From contig CAZOVK010000002.1 in assembly GCA_964583165.1 (NCBI GenBank), positions 14,015 through 78,014 of the forward strand: a stretch of 64,000 nt of DNA. The letters run 5' to 3'. Positions 7,275 to 33,474 of this stretch are shown in pieces; the first letter of the stretch is position 1, and every line of letters begins with the position of its first letter. The translations under genes and the position numbers were made by a program. The notes under the pieces are model-generated. The model did no database searches, had not been told where the DNA came from, and saw only the letters and a program-made list of their open reading frames with translations. This DNA is from an uncultured Defluviitaleaceae bacterium. Its GTDB lineage: Bacteria; Bacillota; Clostridia; Lachnospirales; WRAX01.

Positions 7275-7333
7275 TAATGCCCATGAATCCGACAAAGGCA
7301 AATAATCTACAATAGAAGCTAAGAAAATGTGCA

Positions 7334-7362
7334 TTGACAATTTATACTGCTACACATATACT
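7334..7362 (+). promoter_or_regulatory. Sigma-A promoter upstream of the Fic stub
   Basis: TTGACA-17-TATACT. Confidence 0.6.
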
Positions 7363-7447
7363 AGACTTAATATAATTATGGGGGGTTCTTTGTTAATTGG
7401 CTTCATACATTTAGCGCTATATGTAATATGAACATGAGGTGATACTT

Positions 7448-7567
7448 TTGGGAAGTGATAGGTTCAATGACCTTACTCAAATAGACAAACTAATAAATGA
7501 GCTAGACAGAAAACGCCCATTGACTAAAGGTGAGGTAGAGCGTTTGCGAGATGAGCGGATTATCTGA
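7448..7567 (+). pseudogene. N-terminal stub of a Fic-family protein
   Basis: RBS GAGGTGA, then (M)GSDRFNDLTQIDKLINELDRKRPLTKGEVERLRDERII*. This matches the LDxxRPLxxGEVERLR N-terminus of clostridial Fic proteins and stops before the TYNSNAIEG motif. Confidence 0.65.
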
Positions 7568-7588
7568 CAGAAAAGATACGGTTTTATA

Positions 7589-8449
7589 TCAATATCTTAA
7601 ATCCTCAATAAGATGATAAAGCTTGGAATAAAACCCGCGGATGTCAATACCTGCGTCAAGCCCCGATACTTGCCCGTCGCCTGTTTCTATAACTGTCCAA
7701 CTTCCGTCATCAAGTTGGGCGAAGTCAACAGTGTAGAATTGGCTGCTTAATTTTGGTATTCTACTCAAAAATTCTTTGGGCACACTGCCATTGGGCAATA
7801 AGTGATTTGTATGTGCAGAAACAGAAAGAACAAACCCTTTGAAATAGAAAACTCTATACTCACAAATCATGCCGTCAATCTTAGCGAAATTGACGAATTT
7901 TTTCAGTACGATACCCTTCGTATATAGCTCTCCGCGTAATTCCTTGAACCACCTCAGATAACCATCCAATTCCTCATTAGTCATTGCTGTATCCAATACT
8001 TTAAGGAAATGCTGTTCATTTACGGATTTCACATAGTCTTTTATTATGAATCTGTTAAAATTATTTCTTACGATAGACCAATCAACGTATTGACCATCTG
8101 GGTAGACCAATATTTCAGGCGTAAGACTTCTTATCACTGGGTACACATTAGGGAACTCATGGCAATATTCATATTGTTCTGGCGTATTGACGAGCGATAA
8201 ACCACTTGCCGATAGTTTTTCGTAAAGCGCCCTGTATTGTTCGGTTTTTAGCATCCAACCCCTATATATGCACAGCCCTGTTGAGTGTTGCTTAGGGTAA
8301 AGCTTGAGCTTACCACCGCTGATGAAATCATCATAATTGAATAGCAGTACGTTAAATTGCTCTGCCGCCGCTTTATATTCATTTTCATATGTACTGTCTG
8401 CTTTGGTCAAATCAAAAAAGTCGGCCGGGAATAAAATTGTAGCTCTCAT
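7589..8449 (-). CDS. ATP-grasp domain protein (R2K clade-like)
   Basis: IYRGWML, FIIKDYVKS, EYRVFY, FYTVDFAQLDDGSWTVIETGDGQVSGL; ATG at 8449 follows the GAGGTGG RBS. Confidence 0.8.
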   Translation of the reverse strand: MRATILFPADFFDLTKADSTYENEYKAAAEQFNVLLFNYDDFISGGKLKLYPKQHSTGLCIYRGWMLKTEQYRALYEKLSASGLSLVNTPEQYEYCHEFPNVYPVIRSLTPEILVYPDGQYVDWSIVRNNFNRFIIKDYVKSVNEQHFLKVLDTAMTNEELDGYLRWFKELRGELYTKGIVLKKFVNFAKIDGMICEYRVFYFKGFVLSVSAHTNHLLPNGSVPKEFLSRIPKLSSQFYTVDFAQLDDGSWTVIETGDGQVSGLDAGIDIRGFYSKLYHLIEDLRY

Positions 8450-8646
8450 TGTGCCTACCACCTCGGCAGTAATATTTGCACTTTTCAGTATACCATATCG
8501 TACAAGAAAATCAAATGATTTCAGTCTATGTAATGGCAACCGCAAAATGACATTACAGATGCTTATCTGTCATCATCGTTCAAAATTGAATACTGATGTG
8601 TTAGATAAGATTTGAAACTTAATTCAATGTGTTACAATCTGAAAAT

Positions 8647-8678
8647 AAAGCCATTGGGTATTTTCCCCAATGGCCTTT
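8647..8678. terminator. Intrinsic terminator of the 994-aa S-layer gene
   Basis: gccattggg/cccaatggc stem with flanking A/T runs. Confidence 0.7.
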
Positions 8679-8693
8679 GCCATAATATCCCTG

Positions 8694-11678: not shown

Positions 11679-11743
11679 GGTGTTAATTCCTCCTCCATTT
11701 TGTTTTTGTGTTGTAATTTATATGCAGCTGTTTCTCAAACTAT

Positions 11744-11777
11744 ATTATAAACCCCAACCTGTGACAAACCTGTGACA
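11744..11777 (-). promoter_or_regulatory. Activator-type promoter: tandem 11-bp boxes (TGTCACAGGTT x2), 6 bp, TATAAT
   Basis: Plus strand AACCTGTGACA at 11756-11766 and 11767-11777; ATTATA at 11744-11749. Confidence 0.75.
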
Positions 11778-11840
11778 AAACAGCCCTCAAATTGAGAATC
11801 TTAAAAATTTTTAAGAACTCAATAGCCGTTGTCACAGGTT
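11767..11840. repeat. 74-bp imperfect palindrome with 12-bp perfect outer arms and an 18-bp perfect core
   Basis: aacctgtgacaa (11767-11778) / ttgtcacaggtt (11829-11840); core tcttaaaaatttttaaga (11799-11816). Confidence 0.7.
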
Positions 11841-11893
11841 TTTATGCTTGTCGCTTATTAAACTACCTTACCGACATTTTGGCTGACATGGTT

Positions 11894-13861
11894 CTAATTC
11901 TGTTTGACCAAGCCAAAACTTATGCCGTCGCCTTGAAGTGATTTAGCGTTGATAGTGGCGACATATTCATCACCCGCCGAAAGGTTTTTCTCCTCTGTTG
12001 CGCTGGTTTCGCTGGCTTCTAAGAAGTTGCGTTCTGTGGCTGTGAAACTCAGAATACCATTTGCTGTTGCTGACATGGTTATCGTGTAGGTTTCATTCGG
12101 CGGTAAGTACAAAATGGTTTCGCCTTCATTCACACTACAAGCCGTAACCCCTAGGTATGTTTCATCCTCAATTACGATGTCGTTAAGGTGTGGCGTAATC
12201 TCTGCGCCGATAACCTCAATCACCTTTACGCCATTACTGTCAGTTACCATAACATTTGTCGGCGCCTTGATAATTATTACGCGATATGTGCCGTCGTTAA
12301 AGAATTCTTCTATGTTCGGTTCTTGCTCTTCGCCCGATTCAGCCGCAACAGGGTAGTTAGTTTCATCAAGCGACATAAGCCAAGCCAAACATACCGCTGT
12401 GAAATGTCCTTGAACTATACATGACGCGTTGAATATGAGCGTTAAAAGCGTGTTGACACCGAACGTGAAAATCACCTTAGATAGCATCTTGATTACCGCA
12501 AATACTATGCCCTTGACACAAGCTTCTGTGTAGGTTTCAAACGGAGGATATTTCTTAAAGGACTCAATCACTATTTTTGTAACTCGTTCAACAAACTTCT
12601 CTGGGTCGGGAGACTTCATCAACTCACGCGCAAGCTTCTCGAGGGTTTCCATTGTAAATAAATGCTTTACAGCATCGCTGTTGCGCTCGTCACATAGAAA
12701 ACTTACCAGGCTACGAATATGCGGCTGAAAATCGGCATGGTATTCAGGTAACGTAAACACCTCGGTCGCTATATTGCGGAACAAATCGTCTAAGAATATG
12801 CTCATAGGTCTGTTTTTACCTGACAAGTATTCCTCAAACTTGTCAATTACATAAAACTCCTTCGGATGCTCTATCTGCATGTATTTTTTCATGCACTGTC
12901 TCATCCTTTTAAGATATCTGTCATAAAACTTGGTGGTTACACGACTCGGCAACCCTTCATCTGTACCAAAGCGCGTGAATTCCCAATCTTTGGGGGCAAC
13001 CTTTGTAACGAAATCGTTAAAGTTGATTATGTTATGTATAACATTATAGCGAGGGTCTTTCGGGGAGATTGTTCTTGTTCTTTGAACACCGGCCGGCGTT
13101 TCAAATGTGTAGGCAAAGACATTAGAAGCAGTCTTTATAAGCGGCTTAATAAAGTTCTTTGAGTGTTCGTCGTTCAAGATGTCTACAATTTTTCCGGCGG
13201 CGAGGTTTGCTGTTGCAGCCCCACGTGAATAACCTACTATCCACAGCTTAATATCCTTGCCCGATAAAAGGCGGCTATTGGTGTTCAAGTATTTTGTAAG
13301 CTCGCCCACGACTATATCGCTGGATAAGTCAAAGCCATGGTGATAGTTATTGTTGTTTGGCGCCATCGTAAAGTTACCACCCCATTCGCGCTGATAACCG
13401 CCACCGCGAACACACACGGCCAAAACGAGTGATGTTTTATCGCCTGAAAACTGAATGGGCTTAAACGCGAACGAAACAGCCATCGAATCACACTGAGAAG
13501 GCTCATGGTAATAGTTACAAGATGTATATTGTAGAAAGTGAAGCGGTTTAAGCTCATCATACTTCACGTATTGAGGGTCAGAAGCTTGCCCCGTCAACAA
13601 ATATCTGACATTATCGTCTTGATACTTATAGTAATCACCCGTGCCCGGTTTTACACCAGCGGGGAAATAACTGAATGCTGACAGCGCGAGTACAAGACTC
13701 ATTGACGCAAGGTCATATTTGAAATCTGTGTTGCATGAGAAATATTCACTCTTAAAGATGTATGGAACGGAGTAATGACCGATACCAGCATCTTTGGCAA
13801 CGTGGTAAATGCCGTTAATTGTCATTTCTTCAGTAGTGATTTCATTCATGTTCTCTGACAT
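11894..13861 (-). CDS. Alpha/beta-hydrolase (lipase class-3-like); no signal peptide or SLH anchor
   Basis: WIVGYSRGAATANL nucleophile elbow, YTFETP, NIINFNDFVTKVAP. GGAGG RBS favours the ATG at 13861; the ORF track starts at 13876. Confidence 0.75.
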   Translation of the reverse strand: MSENMNEITTEEMTINGIYHVAKDAGIGHYSVPYIFKSEYFSCNTDFKYDLASMSLVLALSAFSYFPAGVKPGTGDYYKYQDDNVRYLLTGQASDPQYVKYDELKPLHFLQYTSCNYYHEPSQCDSMAVSFAFKPIQFSGDKTSLVLAVCVRGGGYQREWGGNFTMAPNNNNYHHGFDLSSDIVVGELTKYLNTNSRLLSGKDIKLWIVGYSRGAATANLAAGKIVDILNDEHSKNFIKPLIKTASNVFAYTFETPAGVQRTRTISPKDPRYNVIHNIINFNDFVTKVAPKDWEFTRFGTDEGLPSRVTTKFYDRYLKRMRQCMKKYMQIEHPKEFYVIDKFEEYLSGKNRPMSIFLDDLFRNIATEVFTLPEYHADFQPHIRSLVSFLCDERNSDAVKHLFTMETLEKLARELMKSPDPEKFVERVTKIVIESFKKYPPFETYTEACVKGIVFAVIKMLSKVIFTFGVNTLLTLIFNASCIVQGHFTAVCLAWLMSLDETNYPVAAESGEEQEPNIEEFFNDGTYRVIIIKAPTNVMVTDSNGVKVIEVIGAEITPHLNDIVIEDETYLGVTACSVNEGETILYLPPNETYTITMSATANGILSFTATERNFLEASETSATEEKNLSAGDEYVATINAKSLQGDGISFGLVKQN

Positions 13862-20983: not shown

Positions 20984-21790
20984 TTGAACATGGAGTACAG
21001 AGCAATTCCAAAGGGATATATGACAGTTGGTGAGCTTGCAAAGAAAATGAACACCACAGTAAGAACCTTGCAATACTACGACAAAGAGGGGCTTCTTACC
21101 CCGTCAGCTGAGAGCGAGGGCGGGCGCAGGCTCTATACAGACAAAGATATGGTAAAACTTCATCAGATACTATCTATGAAATATCTGGGCTTTTCGCTTG
21201 ACGAGATAAAAGGGCATTTGGCATCGCTTGACACGCCTGATGATGTAGCGAGAGTCTTAGGTGAACAGGCTAGGATAGTTAAGGAAAAAATCGCGACACT
21301 AACCGAAACGTTACGGGCTATTGAAGCTCTAAGAGAAGAAACCTTGCGTATGCACACGGTTGATTTCAAGAAATACGCCGACATAATCGTGCTTCTACAG
21401 TTAAAAAATGACCTCTATTGGGTAGTCAAACACTTCGATGATAATATGCTTGAACACATACGTGAAAACTTTAGTCAACAAAGTGGCTTAGAATTTGTAA
21501 ATGAATGGAAAGACCTGTGTGATGAAACGGCAGAGCTTCAAAAAAACGGCATATCGCCGCTAAGTGAACAGGGTCAAGCGATAGCGAAAACTTGGTGGGA
21601 CATTGTGATAAAGTTTACAGGCGGGAATATGGCTATGTTGCCACAATTGATGGAGTTCGCGCAAAACAGGGACAACTGGGACAATGTATGGAAAGAGAAG
21701 TATACGCTGGTTGAGCCATTTTTAATGCAGGCGTTAGAGGAGTTTTTCAAGAATATGGGTCAAAATCCGTTTGAGGGGGTTTCGCAATGA
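20984..21790 (+). CDS. MerR-family regulator with TipAS-like C-terminal domain
   Basis: MTVGELAKKMNTTVRTLQYYDKEGLL...GRRLY HTH; C-terminal SEQGQAIAKTWW. Confidence 0.9.
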   Translation: MNMEYRAIPKGYMTVGELAKKMNTTVRTLQYYDKEGLLTPSAESEGGRRLYTDKDMVKLHQILSMKYLGFSLDEIKGHLASLDTPDDVARVLGEQARIVKEKIATLTETLRAIEALREETLRMHTVDFKKYADIIVLLQLKNDLYWVVKHFDDNMLEHIRENFSQQSGLEFVNEWKDLCDETAELQKNGISPLSEQGQAIAKTWWDIVIKFTGGNMAMLPQLMEFAQNRDNWDNVWKEKYTLVEPFLMQALEEFFKNMGQNPFEGVSQ

Positions 21791-22599
21791 GTATAGCGGT
21801 TAGGGTTAATAACCTTGTAAAGAATTACGGCGCAAATAGCGTCATCAAAGGCATTTCGTTTGAAGTCAGACAGGGCGAAATCTTCGCTTTCCTTGGCACG
21901 AACGGCGCTGGAAAGACCACAACGCTTGAATGTATCGAGGGTTTACGCGGTTATGACAGCGGTAAAATAGATATAAGCGGTAAGGTAGGCGTTCAATTAC
22001 AGTCAGCGTCGCTCCCGGCTAACATCAAAGCCATTGAAGCGATAAGGTTATTTTCGAAGTGGAATAGAAGTGGCGTTGATACACATCTGCTCACGGCTTT
22101 TGGGATTGATGAAATAAAAAACAAGCAATACAAGGATATGTCCGTGGGTCAAAAACGACGACTCCACTTAGCTCTCGCGCTAATCGGCAACCCAGACATT
22201 ATCATTCTTGATGAACCCACGGCGGGTCTTGACGTAGAAGGCAGAGTTGCGCTCCACGAAGAAATCAGAAAACTAAAGGCGGCAGGCAAGACAATAATTA
22301 TGGCAAGCCACGACATGGCAGAAGTGGAAAGCCTATGTGACCGCATCGCCATTCTGAAAGACGGTAAACTAGCCTTTATGGGTACGGCGGGTGAACTTAC
22401 GGCCCATATCGGTGTGAGCTGTACCATTCACATAAAGACAGAAAAAGGCGTTAACACTTTTACATCAGACAATATAACCGAAACACTGCTCACAGAGCTT
22501 TCACGCTACAAGCAAGAACACATAACCGTTCTTGATGTTAAGGTCGAGAAAGCTACACTTGAAGAGAGATTTATCGCTATAGCAAGGGGGAACGAGTAA
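21787..22599 (+). CDS. ABC transporter ATP-binding protein (multidrug/ABC-2 type)
   Basis: GTNGAGKTT, MSVGQKRR, LDEPTAGLD, SHDM. Confidence 0.9.
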   Translation: MSIAVRVNNLVKNYGANSVIKGISFEVRQGEIFAFLGTNGAGKTTTLECIEGLRGYDSGKIDISGKVGVQLQSASLPANIKAIEAIRLFSKWNRSGVDTHLLTAFGIDEIKNKQYKDMSVGQKRRLHLALALIGNPDIIILDEPTAGLDVEGRVALHEEIRKLKAAGKTIIMASHDMAEVESLCDRIAILKDGKLAFMGTAGELTAHIGVSCTIHIKTEKGVNTFTSDNITETLLTELSRYKQEHITVLDVKVEKATLEERFIAIARGNE

Positions 22600-23312
22600 T
22601 GAGCACGTTTTTATATGGCATTGGGCTACAATGGAAGCTGGACTTTAGAAATAAAGGTGTTGTTGTTACCTATTATGTTGTACCGTTGGTGTTCTTTGCC
22701 TTCATGGGCGGTATCTTCACATCAATTAACCCCGACGCAAAGGATACACTCATACAATCTATGACAGTTTTCGCTGTAACTATGGGTACGATTCTCGGCT
22801 CACCCGCGCCGCTTGTAGAGCTCTACGGCAGTGACATAAAGAAGGCATACAAGGTCGGCGGGATTCCGCTGTGGGTGGGGGCGGTGAACAACGCTATATC
22901 GGCTTTCATCCACTTGATGATAACTAGCGCAATAATATATGTAGCGGCTCCTCTAATCTATCAAGCCACAGCTCCCGAAAGCGTAACACAACATTTTCTG
23001 TCGGTCGCGCTGTTCTTACTAGCCGCTATTGGGGTAGGAACTCTTCTAGGGCTGTTTGTTAAGGCGACATCAAAGCTGACAATGCTTGCACAAATAATTT
23101 TCTTGCCGTCGGTTATGCTGTCAGGTATCATGTTTCCGCTAAGTTATCTGCCGAGTGTGTTGGCGACAATCGGGAAGTTATTCCCCGCTACATGGGGATT
23201 TATACTGCTGACGGAAAAGTTTGACTGGGCTAATGTGTTTCCGCTTGTCATTATCTTTGCAATTGCAACTGTTTTAAGCGCATTTAAGCTATCAAGAATC
23301 AAAAGAGTTTAG
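22599..23312 (+). CDS. ABC-2 type permease
   Basis: Six TM segments, FLPSVMLSGIMFP; coupled to the ATPase. Confidence 0.85.
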   Translation: MSTFLYGIGLQWKLDFRNKGVVVTYYVVPLVFFAFMGGIFTSINPDAKDTLIQSMTVFAVTMGTILGSPAPLVELYGSDIKKAYKVGGIPLWVGAVNNAISAFIHLMITSAIIYVAAPLIYQATAPESVTQHFLSVALFLLAAIGVGTLLGLFVKATSKLTMLAQIIFLPSVMLSGIMFPLSYLPSVLATIGKLFPATWGFILLTEKFDWANVFPLVIIFAIATVLSAFKLSRIKRV

Positions 23313-23318
23313 CTAGAA

Positions 23319-23348
23319 AAGCCACTGCCGCAGTAGCGGCAGTGGCTT
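23319..23348. terminator. Intrinsic terminator
   Basis: aagccactgccgc-agta-gcggcagtggctt, perfect 13-bp stem. Confidence 0.8.
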
Positions 23349-23490: not shown

Positions 23491-25446
23491 TTATTTAAGC
23501 GGTATGCAAACGCCTACGCGAAAGATTGTGTCGTTCGGCATAATATCAAGCACTCCGCCGTTACGCTCTACAATATCCCTAACAGAGCGTAGCCCTATAC
23601 CGCGCCTGCCTGTGACCTTGCTTGACAATATGATTTCTCCTTGCTTTTGTGGGGTACCACTGTAGGTATTCTCTATAAGTAGAAAAAATAGAGCACTGTT
23701 ATTCGTGCTACTTATGGCAATATTGCGGTTGCCTTTGGTTTGCCGCTGACAGGCTTCAATGGCGTTTTCCAGAAGATTGCCAAAAAGTGTACACAACTCT
23801 ATATCGGATAGTGATAGTTTTTCGGGTAGAATCAGCTGAATCTTTATTTGGATATCGTGCTTCTTTGCCGTGTTGTAGTAATAGCCCAAAAGCGCGTTTA
23901 CGGCGGCGTTTTTGCAAAACAGCGTGTCTTTGGCGTAATCAGTCGTATCTATGGCTTGCGTAACGCGCCCCAGATATTCGTGTAAAGGGTTTGTGTCTAT
24001 TTCTGTGTTGGTATTTTGGACTGCCAAGCCCTCTATAGCGCGTAAGTGCTGGCGAAAGTCATGTACAAGACGGCGGTTTTCCGTTGCTTGTACCGCGAGC
24101 CTGCTTGAATACTCCAATTGCATGGTAAGTTGGCGTTTAATCTGCCTATGCTCCTCGGCAAATGAAAGACTGTTGGCATACGCGTCTGTTATGGTGCGCC
24201 ACAAGGTGTAGCCAATGGTTGCAATCAGTGCGGTACTGCCTATTTCCAAGAACCAACCTCCTATAATGGGCTCATAGAAGGGCAACAGTCTGTCCCATAC
24301 AAACGCGGCGGCGTAAACAAGATTGGCGTAAAACAAAACCCAGCCTTGCTCGATGCCTGTTGTTATCGCAATAGCGGAGGTAATGAGCAAGTACGCCGCC
24401 GTGACTAATTTGAAAACAAACACAACAACAGAAAAGGCGTGCATGAGCGGAATAGTTAAGTTTCGTGATATTAGCCCATAAATCAGAGCAATCCCGCAAA
24501 TCAGCATGGCTACCGATATGCTTATCAAACGTGGCATTCTGCTTGTATCACATAGTTTATTGTGTATAACAATTACCAACAGCGTCACCAAATAGCCGCT
24601 AAAAAGCTCCACCGCGTACCACGGAGAAACGGGCAACGTGAGTGCCGCATGAAGAATAGGGTAAGAGATAAACCCACAAGCGGCCAAACAAAGTAGTGCA
24701 AAGCGCAGAGCGTTTCGCTCTTCTCTACGAATGCCCAAATAAAGTGCGCATATACCCACGATTATTACAAGCGCAAGTATTACCAGACGTAGCCATAGGC
24801 GCATATCCCTTGCGGCGTTTATGGCTTCCAGTGTGCCAAAGGCGGGGGGATATACAAGCCCACTGTAGTAGTGTGAATAGTTACTTGCGGTCAGCAGGAT
24901 AGTGGTTCTGTCTGATGCCTCAAAGGCTATAATGCGGTTGCCGGTTTGTGGGTTATAGGTTTCGGGGTTCGGGTCGCCTACAGCTAATAATAATTTGTCG
25001 CCGACATATAAACGATATGCTGAGAATATCTCGGGTAATTCTAGCGCATAGACTTGCGGTTGTTTTGGCAGTTGAATGTTTAGAGCATAACTTGCGCTAC
25101 CATATGGGTCATCGTCGCCGAAGTCAAATCGCATACGCTCGCCAATCATTGTGTAGAGCATGTAATGGTCGTATTTATTGCTGTCTAAGTCATCAGGCGT
25201 AAGCATTGCGCTAGGGTAGAGTTCCCAACCGTAAGTAAGGTATCTTATCGGGTGTTTCTGCAAGTCCTCATCCGTTAATACCAACAAACCGTTCGCAGCT
25301 TGCGTTGCCTGATGTGTGTATTTGTTGTCAAAGTGATACATACACAAAAATAAAACTGAAAACACTAACAGCACCAATAGGGATGCGAATAGCCTCTTTA
25401 ACAGCGAAAATTTCGGCGACACAGTTTTTCGCGTGACATTTATCAT
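23491..25446 (-). CDS. Sensor histidine kinase: extracellular 7TM-DISM-like domain, ~7 TM, AgrC-type GHKL domain
   Basis: HDFRQHL H-box, LFGNLLENAIEA, IENT, GIGLRSV; extracellular GWELYP, LELPEIFSAYRLYV. Confidence 0.85.
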   Translation of the reverse strand: MINVTRKTVSPKFSLLKRLFASLLVLLVFSVLFLCMYHFDNKYTHQATQAANGLLVLTDEDLQKHPIRYLTYGWELYPSAMLTPDDLDSNKYDHYMLYTMIGERMRFDFGDDDPYGSASYALNIQLPKQPQVYALELPEIFSAYRLYVGDKLLLAVGDPNPETYNPQTGNRIIAFEASDRTTILLTASNYSHYYSGLVYPPAFGTLEAINAARDMRLWLRLVILALVIIVGICALYLGIRREERNALRFALLCLAACGFISYPILHAALTLPVSPWYAVELFSGYLVTLLVIVIHNKLCDTSRMPRLISISVAMLICGIALIYGLISRNLTIPLMHAFSVVVFVFKLVTAAYLLITSAIAITTGIEQGWVLFYANLVYAAAFVWDRLLPFYEPIIGGWFLEIGSTALIATIGYTLWRTITDAYANSLSFAEEHRQIKRQLTMQLEYSSRLAVQATENRRLVHDFRQHLRAIEGLAVQNTNTEIDTNPLHEYLGRVTQAIDTTDYAKDTLFCKNAAVNALLGYYYNTAKKHDIQIKIQLILPEKLSLSDIELCTLFGNLLENAIEACQRQTKGNRNIAISSTNNSALFFLLIENTYSGTPQKQGEIILSSKVTGRRGIGLRSVRDIVERNGGVLDIMPNDTIFRVGVCIPLK

Positions 25447-27569
25447 CGCCTTACAAGCCGTTTTCGAAGCAGCCAGCCGCCCAAGCCAACAACAGGTAGC
25501 GATACACCACAGATGATAGCCAATACAGCATTAGTATTGTTCGACGCTTGTGTACTCGTTCGAATAATCGGCAATTTAGCCGAAACGCTCGGTGGTTCAA
25601 AAGTTGGAGTCGGTGTCGTTATCGTCGTGTGAGGTACGCCCCCATTTGAATCAACAGCTGTTGGCGTGTTCTGCTCGTGTATGGTGTAATAGCCCGTTTG
25701 GTCAACAATAAATGTCGCTACGGCGATATTCTCATCATAAATGCCGCTATATTCTATGCCCTGCTCGTCGGTGAGAATCAATTGGGCTGTAGCGTCTAGC
25801 ATGTGGTATGGCACCATGACTATGGTTTTCGGTATATAAGTTACGGGAATATCGTTTAATTCTATCGAAAAAGTAAACGTACTATCGCTTATCATTGTGA
25901 TAGTCACAGAAAAGCGGTCGCTGTCTTTGATGTTAAGACCGTCAAACACATCTCTAGGTATCGAAATACTGATGCCCTGCTTAGAAAACCGTACGGCTTC
26001 AGCGTCATAAAGCATCATAAGAAGGCGAGTGCCAGAGATAATATCTTGCGTCTGTCCAAAAAACTCCTTGAAAGCTTGCGGGGTTGGTGAAGCCGTATCT
26101 GTGGGTATTTCTTCTGTATCGCTTGGTTTTGTGCTGTCCGGCTCGGGGTGTATGGTTTCGTTTGACCTCGGCGTTATGGATTCATCTTCATTGGCGTTAG
26201 GGTAGGGGAGGTAGTCCGTCAACTCAGTCTGGTTTTCCGCTATCGAATCAACCTCAATGGGTTTAGTCGTTGTGGGGGTAACAATAACATCAGGGGTTTT
26301 GTTTGTGTAGTTCGGTGTATGTTCAGTATGGTCATAATCATCGTAATTGTAATCATAATTATTGCCGCTACTATTGTCGGCCCCGTTTTCGGGTGGATTT
26401 TGACTTTGGTCGGGTGGGGTTTGATTGTCACTATCGCCGCCGTCGCGGTCACCGTCAAGTTTAATCATGCCTATGTCATCGAAAAAAACATACTGTCCGT
26501 TATCCATTAAATTGAGTACGTTGGATATTTTGCCATTGGCTATAAGCACGAAGTAGTAATTGTCGCGAGTGATCAAAAAGTTAAGCGGGATTGTGAAATA
26601 ATCCGCGCCAAACTGCACTTGTTCTGCGTTTAGGTCTTGCCAATTACCGCCGGTCAACTCTTCGTCAAGCAGCTGTCTTTTCCCGGCGTGCAAATATTTA
26701 ACCACAGGCGATTTAAGCCCCGCGTCTATATGCTCAGATACATTCACCTTCACTGTGTTATCAGATGTAATGCCATATATAATGCGGAATGTATTAGGTT
26801 CATAGATATAAACAGGTGCCTCCACAGAAAAATATTGCTTTTGCAATGTGTATTTGTCCTCGTCTTCAGGCGAAAGCTTGTAGTAAAGCGTCGGATAATA
26901 GAGGTAAGCAAAATATGAGTTAGGCTCACTCGATATGTAATCAATCACTAAATCAACATTTTCTGTGCCGTCTGCGGTTGTAACGGTATATGTGGCATAA
27001 TCGGCTTGCAAGTGTGCCATATATGCTTCTAGCGCCGTAATATCGCCCATTTCAAGCATAATACATTCCAGATATTCTATTGTTGGTTCATTAAAAATCG
27101 GCTTCTTTTCCGGGGTCACAGGGTCCGGTTCTGGTTCTTCTTCGGTTCTGTCGTCATAAATGGTGAAATTAACTGCTTGGCGTTTCAAAACGTCAGGCGA
27201 ATACAACGTCCAATCATCGGGTACGACTACATCGGCGTAGATAGTATATTCCCCCGGCACATATGCCCCGTTTTCCATAGGCAAATCTTCAAAGTGCCAG
27301 TTCCACGGCAATTCTGTATGGGTATATGTGTTAAAATCTGGGTCCGGTGGTTGCCAAATAGAAACAAACGCGGTGCCAAACGATTCAAGCAAATCCGATA
27401 TAACACTATCAACATCCTGCACAGAAGCAGTGCGCACAAGTGAATTGTATGTTACAATATTGACTATCTGCCAAACGCCGGGGTGTTCCGGGTCTTCATA
27501 CGAAAAAACAGGCAGGGCACTGGCAAAACATATAATTATAGCGATAACAACCGCCGTCACACGCTTCAC
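25443..27569 (-). CDS. Secreted, C-terminally membrane-anchored acidic surface protein of unknown function
   Basis: Signal peptide MKRVTAVVIAIIICFASALPVFS; D/P/T-rich linkers; C-terminal TM followed by RKRLVRR; overlaps both neighbours by 4 nt. Confidence 0.75.
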   Translation of the reverse strand: MKRVTAVVIAIIICFASALPVFSYEDPEHPGVWQIVNIVTYNSLVRTASVQDVDSVISDLLESFGTAFVSIWQPPDPDFNTYTHTELPWNWHFEDLPMENGAYVPGEYTIYADVVVPDDWTLYSPDVLKRQAVNFTIYDDRTEEEPEPDPVTPEKKPIFNEPTIEYLECIMLEMGDITALEAYMAHLQADYATYTVTTADGTENVDLVIDYISSEPNSYFAYLYYPTLYYKLSPEDEDKYTLQKQYFSVEAPVYIYEPNTFRIIYGITSDNTVKVNVSEHIDAGLKSPVVKYLHAGKRQLLDEELTGGNWQDLNAEQVQFGADYFTIPLNFLITRDNYYFVLIANGKISNVLNLMDNGQYVFFDDIGMIKLDGDRDGGDSDNQTPPDQSQNPPENGADNSSGNNYDYNYDDYDHTEHTPNYTNKTPDVIVTPTTTKPIEVDSIAENQTELTDYLPYPNANEDESITPRSNETIHPEPDSTKPSDTEEIPTDTASPTPQAFKEFFGQTQDIISGTRLLMMLYDAEAVRFSKQGISISIPRDVFDGLNIKDSDRFSVTITMISDSTFTFSIELNDIPVTYIPKTIVMVPYHMLDATAQLILTDEQGIEYSGIYDENIAVATFIVDQTGYYTIHEQNTPTAVDSNGGVPHTTITTPTPTFEPPSVSAKLPIIRTSTQASNNTNAVLAIICGVSLPVVGLGGWLLRKRLVRR

Positions 27570-28288
27570 AATAGCCCCCCCGATTCCTCATAAACAAACC
27601 GCCTAAAGGTTGCCCCCAAGGCATTTTTATTCCGTATGCTCATGGGTATAACCTCACCGTTTTTCAGCACAAACGTGTGACCTTCCTGCCTCTCTACATA
27701 GTTAAGGTTCACCATTGTGCCGCGCAAGCATATAATGAAGCTTTTCAGTTTGCCAAGCGGTTCAGTTACATCACGAAAACTCTCGTTTACCTTTATTACA
27801 CCATTCTCCATATGCACGTAGGTTACATGTTTTTTATAGTCTATGTACAAGATGTTCTGAATGGGCAGTGACAATTTAGCGCCCCCTGAAACAACATTTA
27901 GTACGGCTGTTGCTTCTTCCTGCCTAAGTTTACAATTACTCATCGCCACTAAAAACGCCGCGTCATCAATCGGTTTAACAAGATAAGACACCGCGCGCAC
28001 GGTATAACCCTCAACGGCAAAATCTCGCGTTATGGTGAGAAAGATAATCTTGCAGTTTTTGTCTTTTTCAAAGACCTTAATTGCCGCATCCATGCCGCTC
28101 ATGCCACCCATAAATATGTCCATAAACACAAGTGAAAACACTCCCGCCTTAAACGCGTCAAGAAACGCCTCTGCGCCTCCAAACTCCACAATCTCAAAGT
28201 CCAAGCGGTGGCTTTGAGCGTAATCCAACAACTTCTCTGAAAGTAACGTGCGGTCATACGAAATGTCGTCAACAATGGCAATCTTCAT
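27566..28288 (-). CDS. LytTR-family response regulator (REC plus LytTR)
   Basis: MKIAIVDD, LVFMDIFM, YLVKP; LytTR NILYIDY...CLRGTMVNL; ATG at 28288. Confidence 0.9.
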   Translation of the reverse strand: MKIAIVDDISYDRTLLSEKLLDYAQSHRLDFEIVEFGGAEAFLDAFKAGVFSLVFMDIFMGGMSGMDAAIKVFEKDKNCKIIFLTITRDFAVEGYTVRAVSYLVKPIDDAAFLVAMSNCKLRQEEATAVLNVVSGGAKLSLPIQNILYIDYKKHVTYVHMENGVIKVNESFRDVTEPLGKLKSFIICLRGTMVNLNYVERQEGHTFVLKNGEVIPMSIRNKNALGATFRRFVYEESGGLL

Positions 28289-28387
28289 AACTTGATAGCT
28301 TCTCCTGAAAGAATATAAATGAAAATTACGATAAGTCATTATAACACAAAACTATAAACCTGTCCATATTCTAAAACCCAGAAGCCT

Positions 28388-28508
28388 TGCGCTTTGAGTA
28401 TAAATATTGCCTTTCGAGTAGAATCATAAAAAATAATTTTGCGGCTTGAGTAGAAACCCTGCGGCTTGAGCAAACCCTATTGACTTTCGTTTTCAGCTGT
28501 TTCATACT
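28388..28508 (+). promoter_or_regulatory. Four LytTR-type direct repeats and a sigma-A promoter for the 1611-aa S-layer gene
   Basis: TGCGCTTTGAGTA (28388), TGCCTTTCGAGTA (28408), TGCGGCTTGAGTA (28440), TGCGGCTTGAGCA (28460): two pairs at 20-bp period. TTGACT (28480-28485)-17-CATACT (28503-28508). Confidence 0.75.
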
Positions 28509-28582
28509 TAGCAAAATATTGTCATTATGCAAGAGGGGTATTAATAACGTAACAAAACACAAACAGGGAGGGAAGTATTTTA

Positions 28583-31500
28583 ATGACAGAATCAAGAAAC
28601 AAACGGAACAAACTAGGTAGCAGGTTAATAAGCCTAATGACCGCGTTGGTGATGGTGTTTGCCTTGCTGCCGTTTAATGTCGTAACGGTTAAGGCAGAAG
28701 GCATCACAGTGTCCGATTGGAACGGCTTAGTAGACGCCCTTACAAGCGGAATCGAAGGTTACATAATAACTCTTAGCTCAAACATAACCGCGCCGACAGG
28801 TACAAACACTGTAACCGTTAACGAAAACTACAAGCTTGGGCTATCAAACTATTCTATAATAATACCAAGCGGCTCGAATGTAACAATTGACGGCGCTCAT
28901 ACGATAACTCGTGAAACAATCGGCACTGGCGCGTTCTTCGATGTTCAAAGCGGTGGTACGCTCACGCTCACAAACATCACACTGGACGGCGGCGCAACAG
29001 CCACGCCAACCGCCCTAACAGCCACAGACGCGCTGGTTACTGTTCAAGAAGGTGGTTCGCTTAACCTTGGCACAAGCGGCAGCACATTAGACGGCGCAAC
29101 GTTGCGGAATAACAACAACGCCGGTGGCCCTGGCGGCGTGAACAACAGCGGCACAGTTACCATGAACGGCGGCACAATAAGCGGCAACACCGCAAGCGGC
29201 ATTGGCGGCGGCGTGTACAACAGTGGCACATTTACCATGAACGGCGGTACAATAAGCGGCAACACCGCAAGCGGCAGCGGCGGCGGCGTGTTTAACAGCG
29301 ACACATTTAACATGAGCGGCGGCACAATAAGCGACAACATTGCAACGGTCGAAAAAGGTGGCGGGGTGTACAATTCTGTGCATGCCTCAATGAACATTTC
29401 CGGCGGCGCGGTTATAAAAGACAACCTTAAGGGAGGGTCAGGAAGCCAAACAAACAGCAATGTTTATCTATCCGCTACTGATTGTGACATGACTAAAGCG
29501 GGCGCGTTCACACAAGGGGCAGACATCCATGTTGACCTTTCCGACTTGACCGCAGGAGCCGATATGCTTACAAACGGCGCCACAGCCGTTGTAGACGGCG
29601 ACCAGAACTATTTCACAAGCGACACGGCAGACAAGTCTTTTGTGTTTAGCGTGGATAAACTTGTTTTGGGAGAGGGTGTCCCAACCGCCGCGATAGGCAA
29701 CTGCACCATCAGCGGCGAAACAGGCACACCGTTATCAAACCAAACAGCCACGGTAACATTAACAGGCGGCACGTTTGTCGGCACAACGTCCGGCGTTGAC
29801 GCGACAAGCTGGTTCGGCGCGGGCGTTATCCCTGACGGTGTTTCTGTTGTCTTTACAGCCACAGCGGCAAGCACAACAGGTACACTCACATTCAACGGCA
29901 CACCAACAGCCATATCAAGCGCGACTTTTGGCGCGGTGACGATACCACAGGCGCAAATAACAGACGCGACAGCGGCGGTTGTTGCCCCTGCAAATATAAG
30001 TGCGGTGTTTGCCATAACAGCCCCCGAGCCGGCAACATATATCGACACCACGGTAAGCCCTGTTGTCCTCGTGCCAAACAGCGCGTGGGATGCGGATAGC
30101 AAAACCCTTACGCTCACAGGCGTGAACATCACTGAACCCATGAAAGATGGTGTAGCCTTCTCCGCTATCAAAGTCCCTGCCGGCACAACGATTGACATGA
30201 TAGGGCTGAATACCCTTAAGTCCGCGGTGATAGATAGTGGTGTCTACAGTAACGGCACAGTCTACAGCCTGGGCGCGTTGACAATGACAGGCTCGGGTGT
30301 TCTTGATGTAAGCAATAGTAACAGTACCGGTAATGGTTATGCGATTTTGGCGAAAGGCAACCTTACTGTAAGCAGCGGCTACATTAAGGCGTATAAAACA
30401 ACGATAGGCGGCGTTTCTATTATGGTTTCCGGCGGTAGCTTCAACGTTACCGGCGGCTATATTGACACAGAAACGCCAAGCACGGTTGGGGTCACGGGTT
30501 TCGCCACGAATGGCATCAGTATTAACGGCGGTAACGTGACCATCAGCGGCGGATACGTCAAGACGGTTGGTTATGGCACGCCAAACAGCTACAACTCCGG
30601 CATTAATTGCAACAATTTGACTATAAGCGGCGGATATTTGGAAGCAGTCGGAAAGGACAGCACTAATGCCCCGTCTAATGGTGTTTCATGTACTTCATTT
30701 ACAAACTCGGGTGGCGTGGTTAAAGCCACAGGTGGCGATGGTACTAATAGCTACGGTATCAACGCAAACACATCCGCAACATTTAATGGCGGCGTAACGA
30801 TAGCCAAGAGCGGCACGGCTTCGGTCGGCACAAGCGCGGCTGTTTGGTGTGGTGACCAATCTCGCTTCACCGAAAGCAACGCAACCAAGGTGATGTATGT
30901 AAACAACAGCACCGTTACAGGCACAAGCGAGCTTATAAACGCAAGCCGTACAAATGATGGCTTGGCAATCGGCACAGGCACAACCGCCGCCAAAGACGTG
31001 GTTATCGCCAAGGTGTTCAGCAACGCTCCCATAACAAGCCTCACCAACAACATCCTCGACGGCTACTATATCGCATACGACAATTCTAGCAACGCGCCCC
31101 TTAATCTTGATGGGATAACGGAGCTAACTATCAGCGGCGGTAATTATGTAAATAACAACAACAACGGCGCTGGCGCGGTGAGAATTACTATGAGTAGCGA
31201 GACGGCAATAGCGGGTGACGGCACGCTGGTATGCCTCTCCAACTCGTCAGGGGTTGGAAACGGCATTACGCTTAATAAAGCCACAGGTTTTAACGGCAAC
31301 TTAATCGGCATAGGCAGCGCAGGTATTTACTTTTATTCCGATTTCACCGCCACAAAAAACGTTATCGGCGTGGGGCGTTACAGTTACGGCGTTACTTCCA
31401 GCGGCAAGCTTGACGTCAACTTAGGCGCAAATGTCATTGGCATATACACTCCCACAGGTGGTGCTTTATCTTGCAACGGAGTCGATGTGTCGCAAAGCTC

Positions 31501-33418
31501 AATCCTTAAAGGCAATGTAACCGCTATTGGCGGAACAGAAGCCGGTCTTAATTTTGCAGTATTCGGACAAACGCTCACAATCGACAAAGGCGCAAGCGTA
31601 ACCGTAATAGGCAGCCACGCGACAAACGGCGCACTTAACTGCAGTAACAACACGCTGGCCATCACAGGCGGCAAGGTTTGGGCGTATAACAAAGATGCAG
31701 GCGGCTCGGTTATGGCAAACACGCTGACCATCGGTTCAGGCATAACTGCCCACACCCTTGCAAGCGACGCAACTTATGGCGACACACTCACCGAAAGAAC
31801 TGGCACGGACAACACCATCTCCGAAAAGATAGCGTATATCCTCGGACAGCCCTACACTGTCACATTCGACACAAACGGTAGCAGCGGCACACCGCCAAGC
31901 CCCATAAGACAAGCGAGCGCGAGCGCGGCAGTAACCATCCCAGCCCCGTCAGAGGCTAATTGCGGCACAAGGATTGGTTATACGCTGGACACAACAGGCT
32001 GGTATGACAATGCAGACGGCACAGGCACAGCCATAATAGGCAGCTACACGCCTACGTCCGATATCACCCTCTACGCCAAATGGACGGATAATCCCACCTA
32101 CACTATCACCTTCGATGCAAACGGCGGCACAGTGAGCCCCACAAGCGGCGTAACATTCACAAATGGCACACTGTCAAGGCTACCCATACCAACGCGCACG
32201 GGCTACACCTTTGGCGGCTGGTTCAAGGAAAGCGCGTTCACTACAGCTGTCACCACATCGACGGTGTTCACAGCGGACACAACGATTTTCGCGAAGTGGA
32301 CGGAAGGCGGTGGCTCACCGCAACCCAGCGGCTCACCGGGCGGCAATGTCGTAATTACACAGACGATTCCGCAGAAGATAGAGGTTTTGACGAACGGTTC
32401 GACTGTCACAGTGAATATGAGTGCGAACCCGGCTGTGTCGAAGGACATTTTGCAAGCGGCGAAGGGCAAGGATGTAAATATTGTCCTTGATTATGGTAAG
32501 TACACATGGACAATCAATGGCAAAACCGTTACAAGCGTATCGGTTTCGTCAAATTCGTATGACTTGACGGTGGCGGAAATCAGCCATGACCCGATTTCGG
32601 TACTTGTGGGAGCAGATACACCACAAGTAATACAACTCTCGATTGCGTATAGCGGTGGCTTGCCGTTTACGGGCGTATTGTCATACCCTGTTGACGCTAG
32701 CTATAACGGTCAGACGGTGTATCTCTACTATTATAACAGCAAGCTGGGTGGGCTAACATTGTCCGATACATGCGTCGTGACTAATGGTTATGTGACTTTT
32801 AACTTCACTCACTGCTCGCGATATGTCGTGACTACACAAAACCTAGGCAAAGCGGTTGGAATCACGAATCCGTTTGAAGATGTAACGGAAAGTGATTGGT
32901 TCTATGACGCGGTAGTTAATGCCTACAACAGGGGGCTTTTCGCAGGTGTTAGTGACACAACCTTTGGCCCTAAAGTGACAATGACACGCGGTATGTTCGC
33001 GACAATTATAGCCAGACTCGATGGCGCTGACGTGACAGGTTATACAAACACGAAATTCACAGACGTTGACATGAATGCTTATTACGGCAAATCTGTAGCA
33101 TGGGCGGCCGATAAGGGGTTAATTTCGGGTTATCAAAACGGCAAGTTCGGCCCTAACGACAACATTACACGTGAACAAATGGCGGCTATCATTTACAACT
33201 ACTTGAAATACGCCAAGGTGTCGCTGCCAACGACATTGAATGTTCCGATATTCACTGACTCCAATAAGGTATCGGTATGGGCTAACGAGGCCGTGACCGT
33301 TATCACCAACAGCGGACTTATGCAGGGTTCCGACAATCGCTTCAATCCGCAAGATACGGCTTCGCGTTCCGAAGTGGCGCAGGTATTGCTTAAATATCTG
33401 AATACAACAGCCGAATAG
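28583..33418 (+). CDS. Large S-layer-anchored adhesin-like protein: signal peptide, Pmp-like GGV repeats, beta-helix passenger, 2 InlB B-repeats, pre-SLH domain, 3x SLH
   Basis: Signal peptide; GGVYNSGTFTMNGGTISGN repeats; YTVTFDTNG...WY...LYAKW; PFEDV..DWFY, MTRGMFA, ITREQMA, ASRSEVAQV. Confidence 0.9.
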   Translation: MTESRNKRNKLGSRLISLMTALVMVFALLPFNVVTVKAEGITVSDWNGLVDALTSGIEGYIITLSSNITAPTGTNTVTVNENYKLGLSNYSIIIPSGSNVTIDGAHTITRETIGTGAFFDVQSGGTLTLTNITLDGGATATPTALTATDALVTVQEGGSLNLGTSGSTLDGATLRNNNNAGGPGGVNNSGTVTMNGGTISGNTASGIGGGVYNSGTFTMNGGTISGNTASGSGGGVFNSDTFNMSGGTISDNIATVEKGGGVYNSVHASMNISGGAVIKDNLKGGSGSQTNSNVYLSATDCDMTKAGAFTQGADIHVDLSDLTAGADMLTNGATAVVDGDQNYFTSDTADKSFVFSVDKLVLGEGVPTAAIGNCTISGETGTPLSNQTATVTLTGGTFVGTTSGVDATSWFGAGVIPDGVSVVFTATAASTTGTLTFNGTPTAISSATFGAVTIPQAQITDATAAVVAPANISAVFAITAPEPATYIDTTVSPVVLVPNSAWDADSKTLTLTGVNITEPMKDGVAFSAIKVPAGTTIDMIGLNTLKSAVIDSGVYSNGTVYSLGALTMTGSGVLDVSNSNSTGNGYAILAKGNLTVSSGYIKAYKTTIGGVSIMVSGGSFNVTGGYIDTETPSTVGVTGFATNGISINGGNVTISGGYVKTVGYGTPNSYNSGINCNNLTISGGYLEAVGKDSTNAPSNGVSCTSFTNSGGVVKATGGDGTNSYGINANTSATFNGGVTIAKSGTASVGTSAAVWCGDQSRFTESNATKVMYVNNSTVTGTSELINASRTNDGLAIGTGTTAAKDVVIAKVFSNAPITSLTNNILDGYYIAYDNSSNAPLNLDGITELTISGGNYVNNNNNGAGAVRITMSSETAIAGDGTLVCLSNSSGVGNGITLNKATGFNGNLIGIGSAGIYFYSDFTATKNVIGVGRYSYGVTSSGKLDVNLGANVIGIYTPTGGALSCNGVDVSQSSILKGNVTAIGGTEAGLNFAVFGQTLTIDKGASVTVIGSHATNGALNCSNNTLAITGGKVWAYNKDAGGSVMANTLTIGSGITAHTLASDATYGDTLTERTGTDNTISEKIAYILGQPYTVTFDTNGSSGTPPSPIRQASASAAVTIPAPSEANCGTRIGYTLDTTGWYDNADGTGTAIIGSYTPTSDITLYAKWTDNPTYTITFDANGGTVSPTSGVTFTNGTLSRLPIPTRTGYTFGGWFKESAFTTAVTTSTVFTADTTIFAKWTEGGGSPQPSGSPGGNVVITQTIPQKIEVLTNGSTVTVNMSANPAVSKDILQAAKGKDVNIVLDYGKYTWTINGKTVTSVSVSSNSYDLTVAEISHDPISVLVGADTPQVIQLSIAYSGGLPFTGVLSYPVDASYNGQTVYLYYYNSKLGGLTLSDTCVVTNGYVTFNFTHCSRYVVTTQNLGKAVGITNPFEDVTESDWFYDAVVNAYNRGLFAGVSDTTFGPKVTMTRGMFATIIARLDGADVTGYTNTKFTDVDMNAYYGKSVAWAADKGLISGYQNGKFGPNDNITREQMAAIIYNYLKYAKVSLPTTLNVPIFTDSNKVSVWANEAVTVITNSGLMQGSDNRFNPQDTASRSEVAQVLLKYLNTTAE
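29132..29377 (+). repeat. Intragenic tandem repeat, 75-bp (25-aa) unit, ~3.3 copies
   Basis: GGVNNSGTVTMNGGTISGNTASGIG / GGVYNSGTFTMNGGTISGNTASGSG / GGVFNSDTFNMSGGTISDNIATVEKG / GGVYNS. Confidence 0.85.
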
Positions 33419-33439
33419 GAAGCTTAAAACTAAATATCA

Positions 33440-33474
33440 AAAAGGCGCGGCATAGTTCGTGCCTTTTTGTTTTT
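33440..33474 (+). terminator. Intrinsic terminator
   Basis: aaaaggcgcgg...tcgtgcctttttgttttt. Confidence 0.7.

Follow-up and report, generated by a model that had tools for sequence, protein, structure and literature searches.

Two-component systems of the AgrC/AgrA (Staphylococcus aureus), ComCDE and PlnABCD type, in which HPK10 kinases are paired with LytTR regulators, combine a kinase with a HATPase_c_5 core and a REC-LytTR response regulator, carry paired direct repeats with a period of ∼20-21 bp just upstream of the −35 elements of divergent promoters, and place directly upstream of the kinase gene a gene that is expected to supply the input. In these systems the upstream gene encodes a peptide precursor of ∼50 amino acids (aa), and the kinase has a peptide pocket of 6-7 transmembrane (TM) helices. 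Receptors of the 7TMR-DISM family (PF07695; RetS and LadS of Pseudomonas aeruginosa) consist of an N-terminal TM helix, a beta-sandwich, seven TM helices and a cytoplasmic output. In WalK-YycH/YycI and MtrB-LpqB, the kinase is encoded together with an extracytoplasmic protein, membrane-bound or lipid-anchored, that is needed to set its activity, and the extracellular sensors of the RsgI/SigI systems of Clostridium (Acetivibrio) thermocellum control genes for surface proteins that bear S-layer homology (SLH) or dockerin domains, by an anti-sigma mechanism. Accessory proteins needed to set kinase activity are also described in QseE-QseG, where the extracytoplasmic protein is QseG (PMC12691602, PMC6075780), and in LiaFSR, where it is LiaF (PMC3543457). 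Here we analyzed a 64-kb window (the whole stretch of contig CAZOVK010000002.1 under study) from the ∼2.5-Mb assembly of an uncultured Defluviitaleaceae bacterium, in which three minus-strand genes for a response regulator, a 708-aa protein that we call X and a sensor histidine kinase face one plus-strand gene for a giant SLH surface protein. Coordinates are positions in this window unless another contig or locus is named.

Our preferred reading, to which we assign a probability of roughly 55%, is that the regulator, X and the kinase make up a two-component system that depends on an accessory protein, is dedicated to the neighbouring surface-protein gene and activates it. The open reading frames (ORFs) lie where an earlier, sequence-only reading of the window had placed them, with 4-nt overlaps on both sides of X that can be read from the sequence (GTGA shared by the regulator stop and the X start, ATGA shared by the X stop and the kinase start), and an NCBIfam scan of the four proteins agreed with Pfam.

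That reading depended on the middle gene being conserved with the pair, and this was found in an X-independent synteny search in which species-representative genomes were searched with kinase patterns only and the neighbours were scored with custom hidden Markov models (HMMs). An X-family gene lay directly upstream of the kinase gene in 38 of the 39 loci with enough upstream sequence, compared with none of 35 loci of other HATPase_c_5 (AgrC-type) kinases and none of 16 loci of genuine 7TMR-DISM receptors. The gene order regulator-X-kinase recurred in the relative loci that were fetched; the regulator is usually upstream, and several loci have it downstream instead, in convergent or co-directional orientation, with X still beside the kinase (the adjacency is kept despite a downstream regulator in L079, L081, L084, L087, L090 and L097). 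Judged by gene order, X is tied to the kinase more strictly than the regulator is. Carriers of the trio include Anaerovorax, Anaerotignum neopropionicum, Proteocatella sphenisci, Blautia hominis and Hungatella hathewayi, as well as Roseburia, Ruminococcus, Flavonifractor, Intestinibacillus and Ligaoa, and on this distribution the trio is a three-gene unit conserved across anaerobic Clostridia. The genome of the window itself holds a paralogous trio on contig C48 (L007; regulator 7316-8038, X 8035-10143, kinase 10140-12050), with identities to the window's proteins of 34% for X, 54% for the kinase and 50% for the regulator; it is followed by an ORF for a dCache/PAS protein (12289-13719) and has no SLH neighbour. 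We conclude from these adjacency counts and from the overlapping genes that X is an obligate, co-translated partner of this kinase type and that the two form a fixed pair.

The AlphaFold2 model of the kinase (predicted local distance difference test, pLDDT, 81) shows a first TM helix (residues 11-40), a beta-sandwich ectodomain (∼50-205), seven TM helices (206 to ∼420) and a cytoplasmic part made of a long DHp helix with H462-D463 and an AgrC-type ATP-binding domain (547-649). H462 and D463 are invariant in 16 homologues, and AgrC (6e52) is the best PDB relative of the kinase both by sequence profile (E = 8e-15) and by fold, with the Foldseek matches of the whole model dominated by the catalytic core. 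The Pfam model for the seven-helix part (7TMR-DISM_7TM, PF07695) gave no match on the window's kinase and found no true member in a search of the window's own genome; on the kinase homologues it matched at full length yet below threshold in 5 of 10, the best reaching 27 bits against a cut-off of 29. Genuine 7TMR-DISM references were collected from 300 genomes of the class, 34 of which hold one; the clostridial members score 85-97 bits to PF07695 and carry GGDEF, LytS-type or HisKA outputs. Profile comparison of the kinase family with 15 genuine members aligned 387 columns, ectodomain included (hhalign, 99.8%, E = 1.5e-29), and an HMM of the kinase family matched the genuine members at 1e-24 to 1e-38. 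Because of the hhalign result and the reciprocal HMM matches, we conclude by homology that the sensor half is a divergent 7TMR-DISM module fused to an AgrC-like core, which agrees with the 7TM-DISM-like input and AgrC-type core that the sequence-only reading had proposed. The receptor thus defined is unlike other 7TMR-DISM receptors in its AgrC-type output and in the constant presence of X, which the 16 reference members lack, and unlike the agr, com and pln kinases in having a 7TMR-DISM sensor with a beta-sandwich ectodomain of ∼160 aa. The DISMED2 model (PF07696) matched neither the kinase family nor the clostridial reference members, the modelled ectodomain being a beta-sandwich, and for this reason the label 'carbohydrate-sensing' for the kinase remains an analogy.

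X belongs to a family without a name that is newly defined here. In the AlphaFold2 model (16 homologues as input; mean pLDDT 69), a signal peptide is followed by three immunoglobulin (Ig)-like beta-sandwich domains (∼34-367), a disordered acidic, Pro- and Thr-containing stretch of ∼120 aa (372-498), a compact domain that we call Xc (500-635; pLDDT ∼90), a short linker and a C-terminal TM helix (681-703) with the basic tail RKRLVRR. Mean column identity of X is only 24%, and lengths in the family range from 225 to 1183 aa. Xc has full occupancy (∼1.0) and the highest identity in the 53-sequence alignment, with the signature residues E502, S512, G513, R515, L516, F528, K530 and G626, and the shortest members (225-226 aa; L090 and L048) consist of nothing but signal peptide, Xc and TM helix. 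The heptapeptide GDRDGGD occurs exactly in 32 of the 53 members, which are otherwise 16-37% identical, within a stretch that is disordered and unconserved. The motif resembles Ca2+-binding loops of the DxDxDG type, a cleavage or docking site being equally possible.

Among 1.84 billion cluster representatives searched by profile, 382 were related to X at E≤1e-3; this number fell to 274 at E≤1e-10 and to 68 at E≤1e-30. X relatives were also found by profile in 22 of 401 genomes of the order, scattered over many families. Neither Pfam, NCBIfam nor the PDB (including a PDB search with a 16-member profile) held a sequence match to X, and Foldseek returned for its model just generic tandem-Ig, cadherin and Sap-like matches with TM-scores <0.25. 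A word-index homologue search with whole X or the Xc region retrieved just X and its paralogue, and a locus search with patterns from the X alignment gave no match, whereas patterns from the kinase alignment succeeded. The C-terminal anchor that the sequence-only reading had assigned to X stands in the form of the TM helix and basic tail and is not an LPXTG-type signal: every full-length X ends in a hydrophobic helix and basic tail and none carries LPXTG. Sortase anchoring of X was rejected: the sequence LPVVG is part of the TM helix itself and precedes the basic tail by 6 residues, and TIGR01167 on an X relative scored below its cut-off and covered the TM helix and tail alone. Public records of X relatives (WP_206458860.1, WP_066086882.1 and EFC97936.1) bear the names 'peptidase', 'LPxTG domain-containing protein' and 'hypothetical protein'; no current NCBIfam or Pfam model backs either of the first two. 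Homology between X and the neighbouring giant, as an idea of homophilic sensing would have it, was looked for and none was found.

The regulator contains both signature domains of LytTR regulators, Response_reg (PF00072; 49.6 bits, cut-off 30.2, 5e-13) and LytTR (PF04397; 40.5 bits, cut-off 22.6, 3e-10), as had been proposed for it, and only its start had to be moved. The open frame extends to 28339 (27566-28339). Since the ATG at 28339 falls within the −10 hexamer of the operon promoter and homologues align only from residue 17-18, the start is most likely M18 at 28288, which gives a protein of 240 aa. The operon promoter itself is the best promoter-like site between 22.5 and 35 kb (11/12, near-consensus), and L008 shows the identical TGGACA-17-TATAAT arrangement.

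Between the two divergent promoters lies the predicted operator. The pattern TGCNNNTYGAGYA (TGCnnnTyGAGyA boxes) has four matches in 64 kb, all of them here (at 28388, 28408, 28440 and 28460), against 0.47 expected in the window, and none of 100 shuffles reached four. Throughout the 2.5-Mb genome the pattern gives 26 scattered single matches, and the sole two pairs with ∼20-bp spacing are those of the window; when the 2.5 Mb were searched for a regulon with the box pair, no further site came up, and by the window's criteria no pair was detectable at the paralogous trio on contig C48. The four repeats in two pairs of 20-bp period that the sequence-only reading had pointed out ahead of a −35 are, then, real and unique in both window and genome. 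The −35 of the SLH gene follows 7 nt after the last box, whose final base is 28472, and the weak −10 of that promoter fits an activator-dependent promoter. On the other side, 21 nt separate the start of the distal pair from the operon promoter's −35.

The same layout recurs elsewhere. When segments picked by eye beforehand were compared, the proximal segment aligned without gaps with those of seven loci in other genomes, in the order box, 8-nt spacer, box, 7 nt, TTGAnn, 17 nt, −10. This promoter stands before SLH giants in six of the seven (G084, G090, L062 and the loci of Anaerovorax, Anaerotignum and Intestinibacillus) and drives a lipase_3 gene in the seventh (L008). The box cores are related across loci, GCTTGAGTA in the window, CCGCTTG(T/A)(G/T)CA in a neighbouring clade and (A/T)TGAGTT farther off, with CTTGAG / GCTTG as the shared core motifs. 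Direct repeats with a spacing of 19-22 bp were present in 12 of 25 trio-upstream regions and in 20 of 134 control intergenic regions taken from the same loci (Fisher p 5e-4, a value that overstates the difference because the loci are kin).

With its signal peptide and SLH triad, the 1611-aa protein has the makeup of an SLH-anchored surface protein: Pfam SLH (PF00395) matches three stretches (1.3e-33; 115 bits), Flg_new matches at 2.3e-25, and the sole PDB relative is the Sap SLH triad (6bt4/3pyw). We infer an adhesin role for it. It is one of 15 SLH ORFs in the genome. Among 62 other distinct loci, at least 8 encode an SLH protein within three genes of the trio, a count that is a floor, several divergent secreted giants of >1500 aa running past the end of the locus. 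In the six aligned loci with SLH giants, the divergent operon contains one or two small genes for receiver-like proteins and the gene for a giant of ∼1500-1570 aa (in G084, more), whose C-terminal part carries three SLH domains, in most cases with Flg_new ahead of them. These giants are mutually orthologous at 39-51% identity, two copies from the same genus reaching 83%. Other divergent neighbours carry GLUG, cadherin-like and choline-binding domains, or GLUG or dockerin domains, or are secreted proteins of >1500 aa.

Two further features of the divergent side were seen in relatives. In the clade of the mutually orthologous giants (L044, L045, L057, L058, L062 and L074), the divergent transcript opens with a conserved hairpin and T-run, a terminator-like leader, and the leader is followed by one or two small REC-only (probably pseudo-receiver) proteins before the giant; none of these is present in the window. 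At L100 (2727-6350; Flavonifractor sp. An92), the divergent neighbour is a 1207-aa SARP-type regulator (Trans_reg_C, BTAD, AAA and TPR).

Taken as a working model, these features would fit together as follows. X would dock onto the kinase through its membrane-proximal Xc domain and TM helix, and its variable Ig-like head, carried on the disordered linker of ∼120 residues, would span the wall and S-layer and bring in the signal, so that X would take the position held by the pheromone gene in the agr, com and pln systems. The kinase would phosphorylate the LytTR regulator, whose dimers would occupy the direct repeats. Binding at the proximal pair, with a −35 at a distance of 7 nt and a weak −10 behind it, would then activate the SLH gene, and the distal pair may add to this activation or feed back on the operon. 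Autoregulation is probably part of the ancestral design, since in some relatives (L043 and L045 among them) the boxes directly adjoin the −35 region of the regulator operon; with a near-consensus operon promoter 21 nt from the nearest box, feedback appears less obvious in the window than in those relatives. A co-receptor role for X, as opposed to that of a brake, contact with a surface or glycan as the signal, and binding of the boxes by the regulator are steps that we infer only.

A more specific and distinctly speculative version of the model treats X as a tethered antenna analogous to the extracellular region of an adhesion G-protein-coupled receptor, with surface contact switching on the giant adhesin. 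Contact, pulling, or cleavage or Ca2+ binding at GDRDGGD would in that case alter how Xc engages the 7TMR-DISM ectodomain.

Coordinates of the features of the locus are collected in the table below. The genes flanking the locus (MacB/FtsX and ABC-2 exporters, a MerR/TipAS regulator, a metallophosphoesterase and Opp ATPases) are unrelated to the trio, and we therefore take the unit to be the trio plus the SLH gene. Downstream of the kinase gene and convergent with it, at 20984-23312, a MerR/TipAS-type regulator gene is followed by an ABC-2 exporter pair, and a terminator-like hairpin at 23321-23337 separates this exporter unit from the kinase gene.

Table. Features of the regulator-X-kinase operon, the divergent SLH gene and the region between them.
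Feature	Position	Strand	Basis or remarks
Sensor histidine kinase, 651 aa	23491..25446	-	Pfam HATPase_c_5 (PF14501), 69.7 bits
Protein X, 708 aa, GTG start	25443..27569	-	Secreted; C-terminal membrane helix
Xc domain of X (residues 500-635)	25665..26072	-	Common to all family members
GDRDGGD motif of X (residues 373-379)	26433..26453	-	Border of Ig-like region and disordered linker
REC-LytTR response regulator, 240 aa from likely start MKIAIVDD	27566..28288	-	Pfam; homologue alignment
Predicted promoter of regulator-X-kinase operon, TGGACA-17-TATAAT with TG extension	28338..28366	-	Consensus scan, 11/12
Distal box pair, TGCGCTTTGAGTA (28388-28400) and TGCCTTTCGAGTA (28408-28420)	28388..28420	+	20-bp period
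Proximal box pair, TGCGGCTTGAGTA (28440-28452) and TGCGGCTTGAGCA (28460-28472)	28440..28472	+	20-bp period
Predicted SLH gene promoter, TTGACT (28480-28485)-17-CATACT (28503-28508)	28480..28508	+	Consensus scan
Giant secreted surface protein, 1611 aa	28583..33418	+	Signal peptide, Gly-rich repeats (GGTISGNTASG...), 2 Flg_new, 3 SLH
Predicted intrinsic terminator	33438..33469	+	13-bp stem and T run; ends monocistronic SLH transcript

Several observations weigh against an X-dependent system dedicated to the surface-protein gene. A third kinase of the same genome (contig C40, 9678-12339, minus strand) has the same ectodomain and seven-helix module on a HisKA/HATPase_c core, with an OmpR-type regulator directly upstream and without X, so that the ectodomain may sense alone; because this kinase carries the module without X, the sensor module is, by this comparison, a mobile unit able to work without X. 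Many trios adjoin housekeeping genes (IleRS, FtsH, ABC-F), and the six SLH-giant loci with the shared layout are kin, amounting to ∼3-4 independent lineages. The window's giant shares with the giants of related loci (L044, L045, L058 and L074) just the C-terminal Flg_new and SLH part, which suggests that a passenger gene has been exchanged behind a conserved control region. Finally, the boxes of the window have the same orientation to the regulator operon as those of L042, L043 and L045, where the boxes abut the operon's −35, and for this reason autoregulation could be their conserved role.

The alternative that survives best, although we consider it rather unlikely, is that X is a kinase partner acting as a brake or scaffold, comparable to LiaF, YycH/YycI, CseA or LpqB, and that the kinase ectodomain reads the signal. 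Among the operon-encoded accessory proteins known for Gram-positive kinases, the majority regulate negatively. The kinase ectodomain, with a mean column identity of 46% and many invariant residues, is far better conserved than X, as expected of a ligand site, and the module also occurs without X in the contig C40 kinase and in the 16 genuine 7TMR-DISM receptors. A mere brake would have no need of an Ig-like head that is large, variable and carried outward on a long linker, an argument weakened by the minimal 225-aa X proteins, which have no such head. By Pfam, NCBIfam, PDB and Foldseek comparison, X is unrelated in sequence or fold to YycH/YycI, LiaF, LpqB and QseG, and differs from them in being a type I protein with a C-terminal anchor, in its much larger size and in its variable Ig-like head; unlike in other systems with kinase accessory proteins, its gene lies between those of the regulator and the kinase.

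It is also conceivable, and in our view less probable still, that the boxes mainly autoregulate the regulator-X-kinase operon and that the SLH gene is merely adjacent and independently controlled. In L042, L043, L044 and L045, 5-6 nt separate the −35 region of the regulator operon from a box pair oriented as in the window, and trios with a housekeeping gene as divergent neighbour (L046 and L047) likewise have repeats upstream. The window's operon, however, has an 11/12 promoter with a TG extension whose −35 is 21 nt from the nearest box, whereas the spacing of 7 nt between the proximal pair and the divergent gene's −35 is conserved in seven other loci, and giant secreted proteins recur on the divergent side.

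Quorum sensing of the Agr or Com kind, with X as the precursor of a peptide that is cleaved out, for example around GDRDGGD, and sensed by the kinase, would account for the AgrC-type core combined with a LytTR regulator, for the position of X directly upstream of the kinase gene, which is that of agrD, comC and plnA, and for a conserved heptapeptide within a disordered stretch. We nevertheless regard it as very improbable. Unlike in agr, com and pln, the gene upstream of the kinase encodes a membrane-anchored protein of 225-1183 aa, with a Sec signal peptide, rather than a short precursor, 21 of the 53 X members are without GDRDGGD, the 7TMR-DISM sensor with its large ectodomain is unlike peptide-sensing AgrC or ComD, and neither an AgrB-like protein nor an ABC exporter with a C39 peptidase adjoins the unit among the trio's flanking genes. 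That X is mere cargo, a surface protein co-expressed with the regulators and with no signalling role, is equally hard to credit: Ig-like domains and a wall-spanning linker are found in many surface proteins, and public records name relatives 'LPXTG-domain protein' or 'hypothetical protein', but the adjacency holds in 38 of 39 loci despite regulator rearrangements, X is missing from all 51 control loci, and the conserved part is the membrane-proximal domain and not the exposed head, which the minimal forms lack altogether.

A search of the full-text literature found no paper on the regulator-X-kinase arrangement, in keeping with the remark in the sequence-only reading that it was not recognised as characterised. 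The unit unites traits of the agr, com and pln systems (core, regulator, repeats and the place of the input gene), of 7TMR-DISM receptors (sensor) and of kinases with accessory proteins such as WalK-YycHI, LiaFSR, MtrB-LpqB and QseE-QseG. The trio resembles RsgI/SigI in its predicted control of surface proteins; the two share no homologous parts, and the trio would work by phosphorelay rather than through an anti-sigma factor. The unit bears on how gut and environmental Clostridia control the display of their giant surface proteins and on the inputs of 7TMR-DISM receptors. The present analysis defines an X partner family, a kinase subfamily in which a 7TMR-DISM sensor is joined to an AgrC-type core, a predicted operator and a likely target gene, and if the tethered-antenna version of the model were true it would give the first concrete input mechanism for a Gram-positive 7TMR-DISM receptor. 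The trio is present in culturable species (Hungatella hathewayi, Blautia hominis, Anaerotignum neopropionicum and Proteocatella sphenisci), which makes the model directly testable. Because the surface protein behind the same control region differs between genomes, the comparison suggests that the trio and its promoter region may be a portable 'sensor plus promoter' cassette for surface display.

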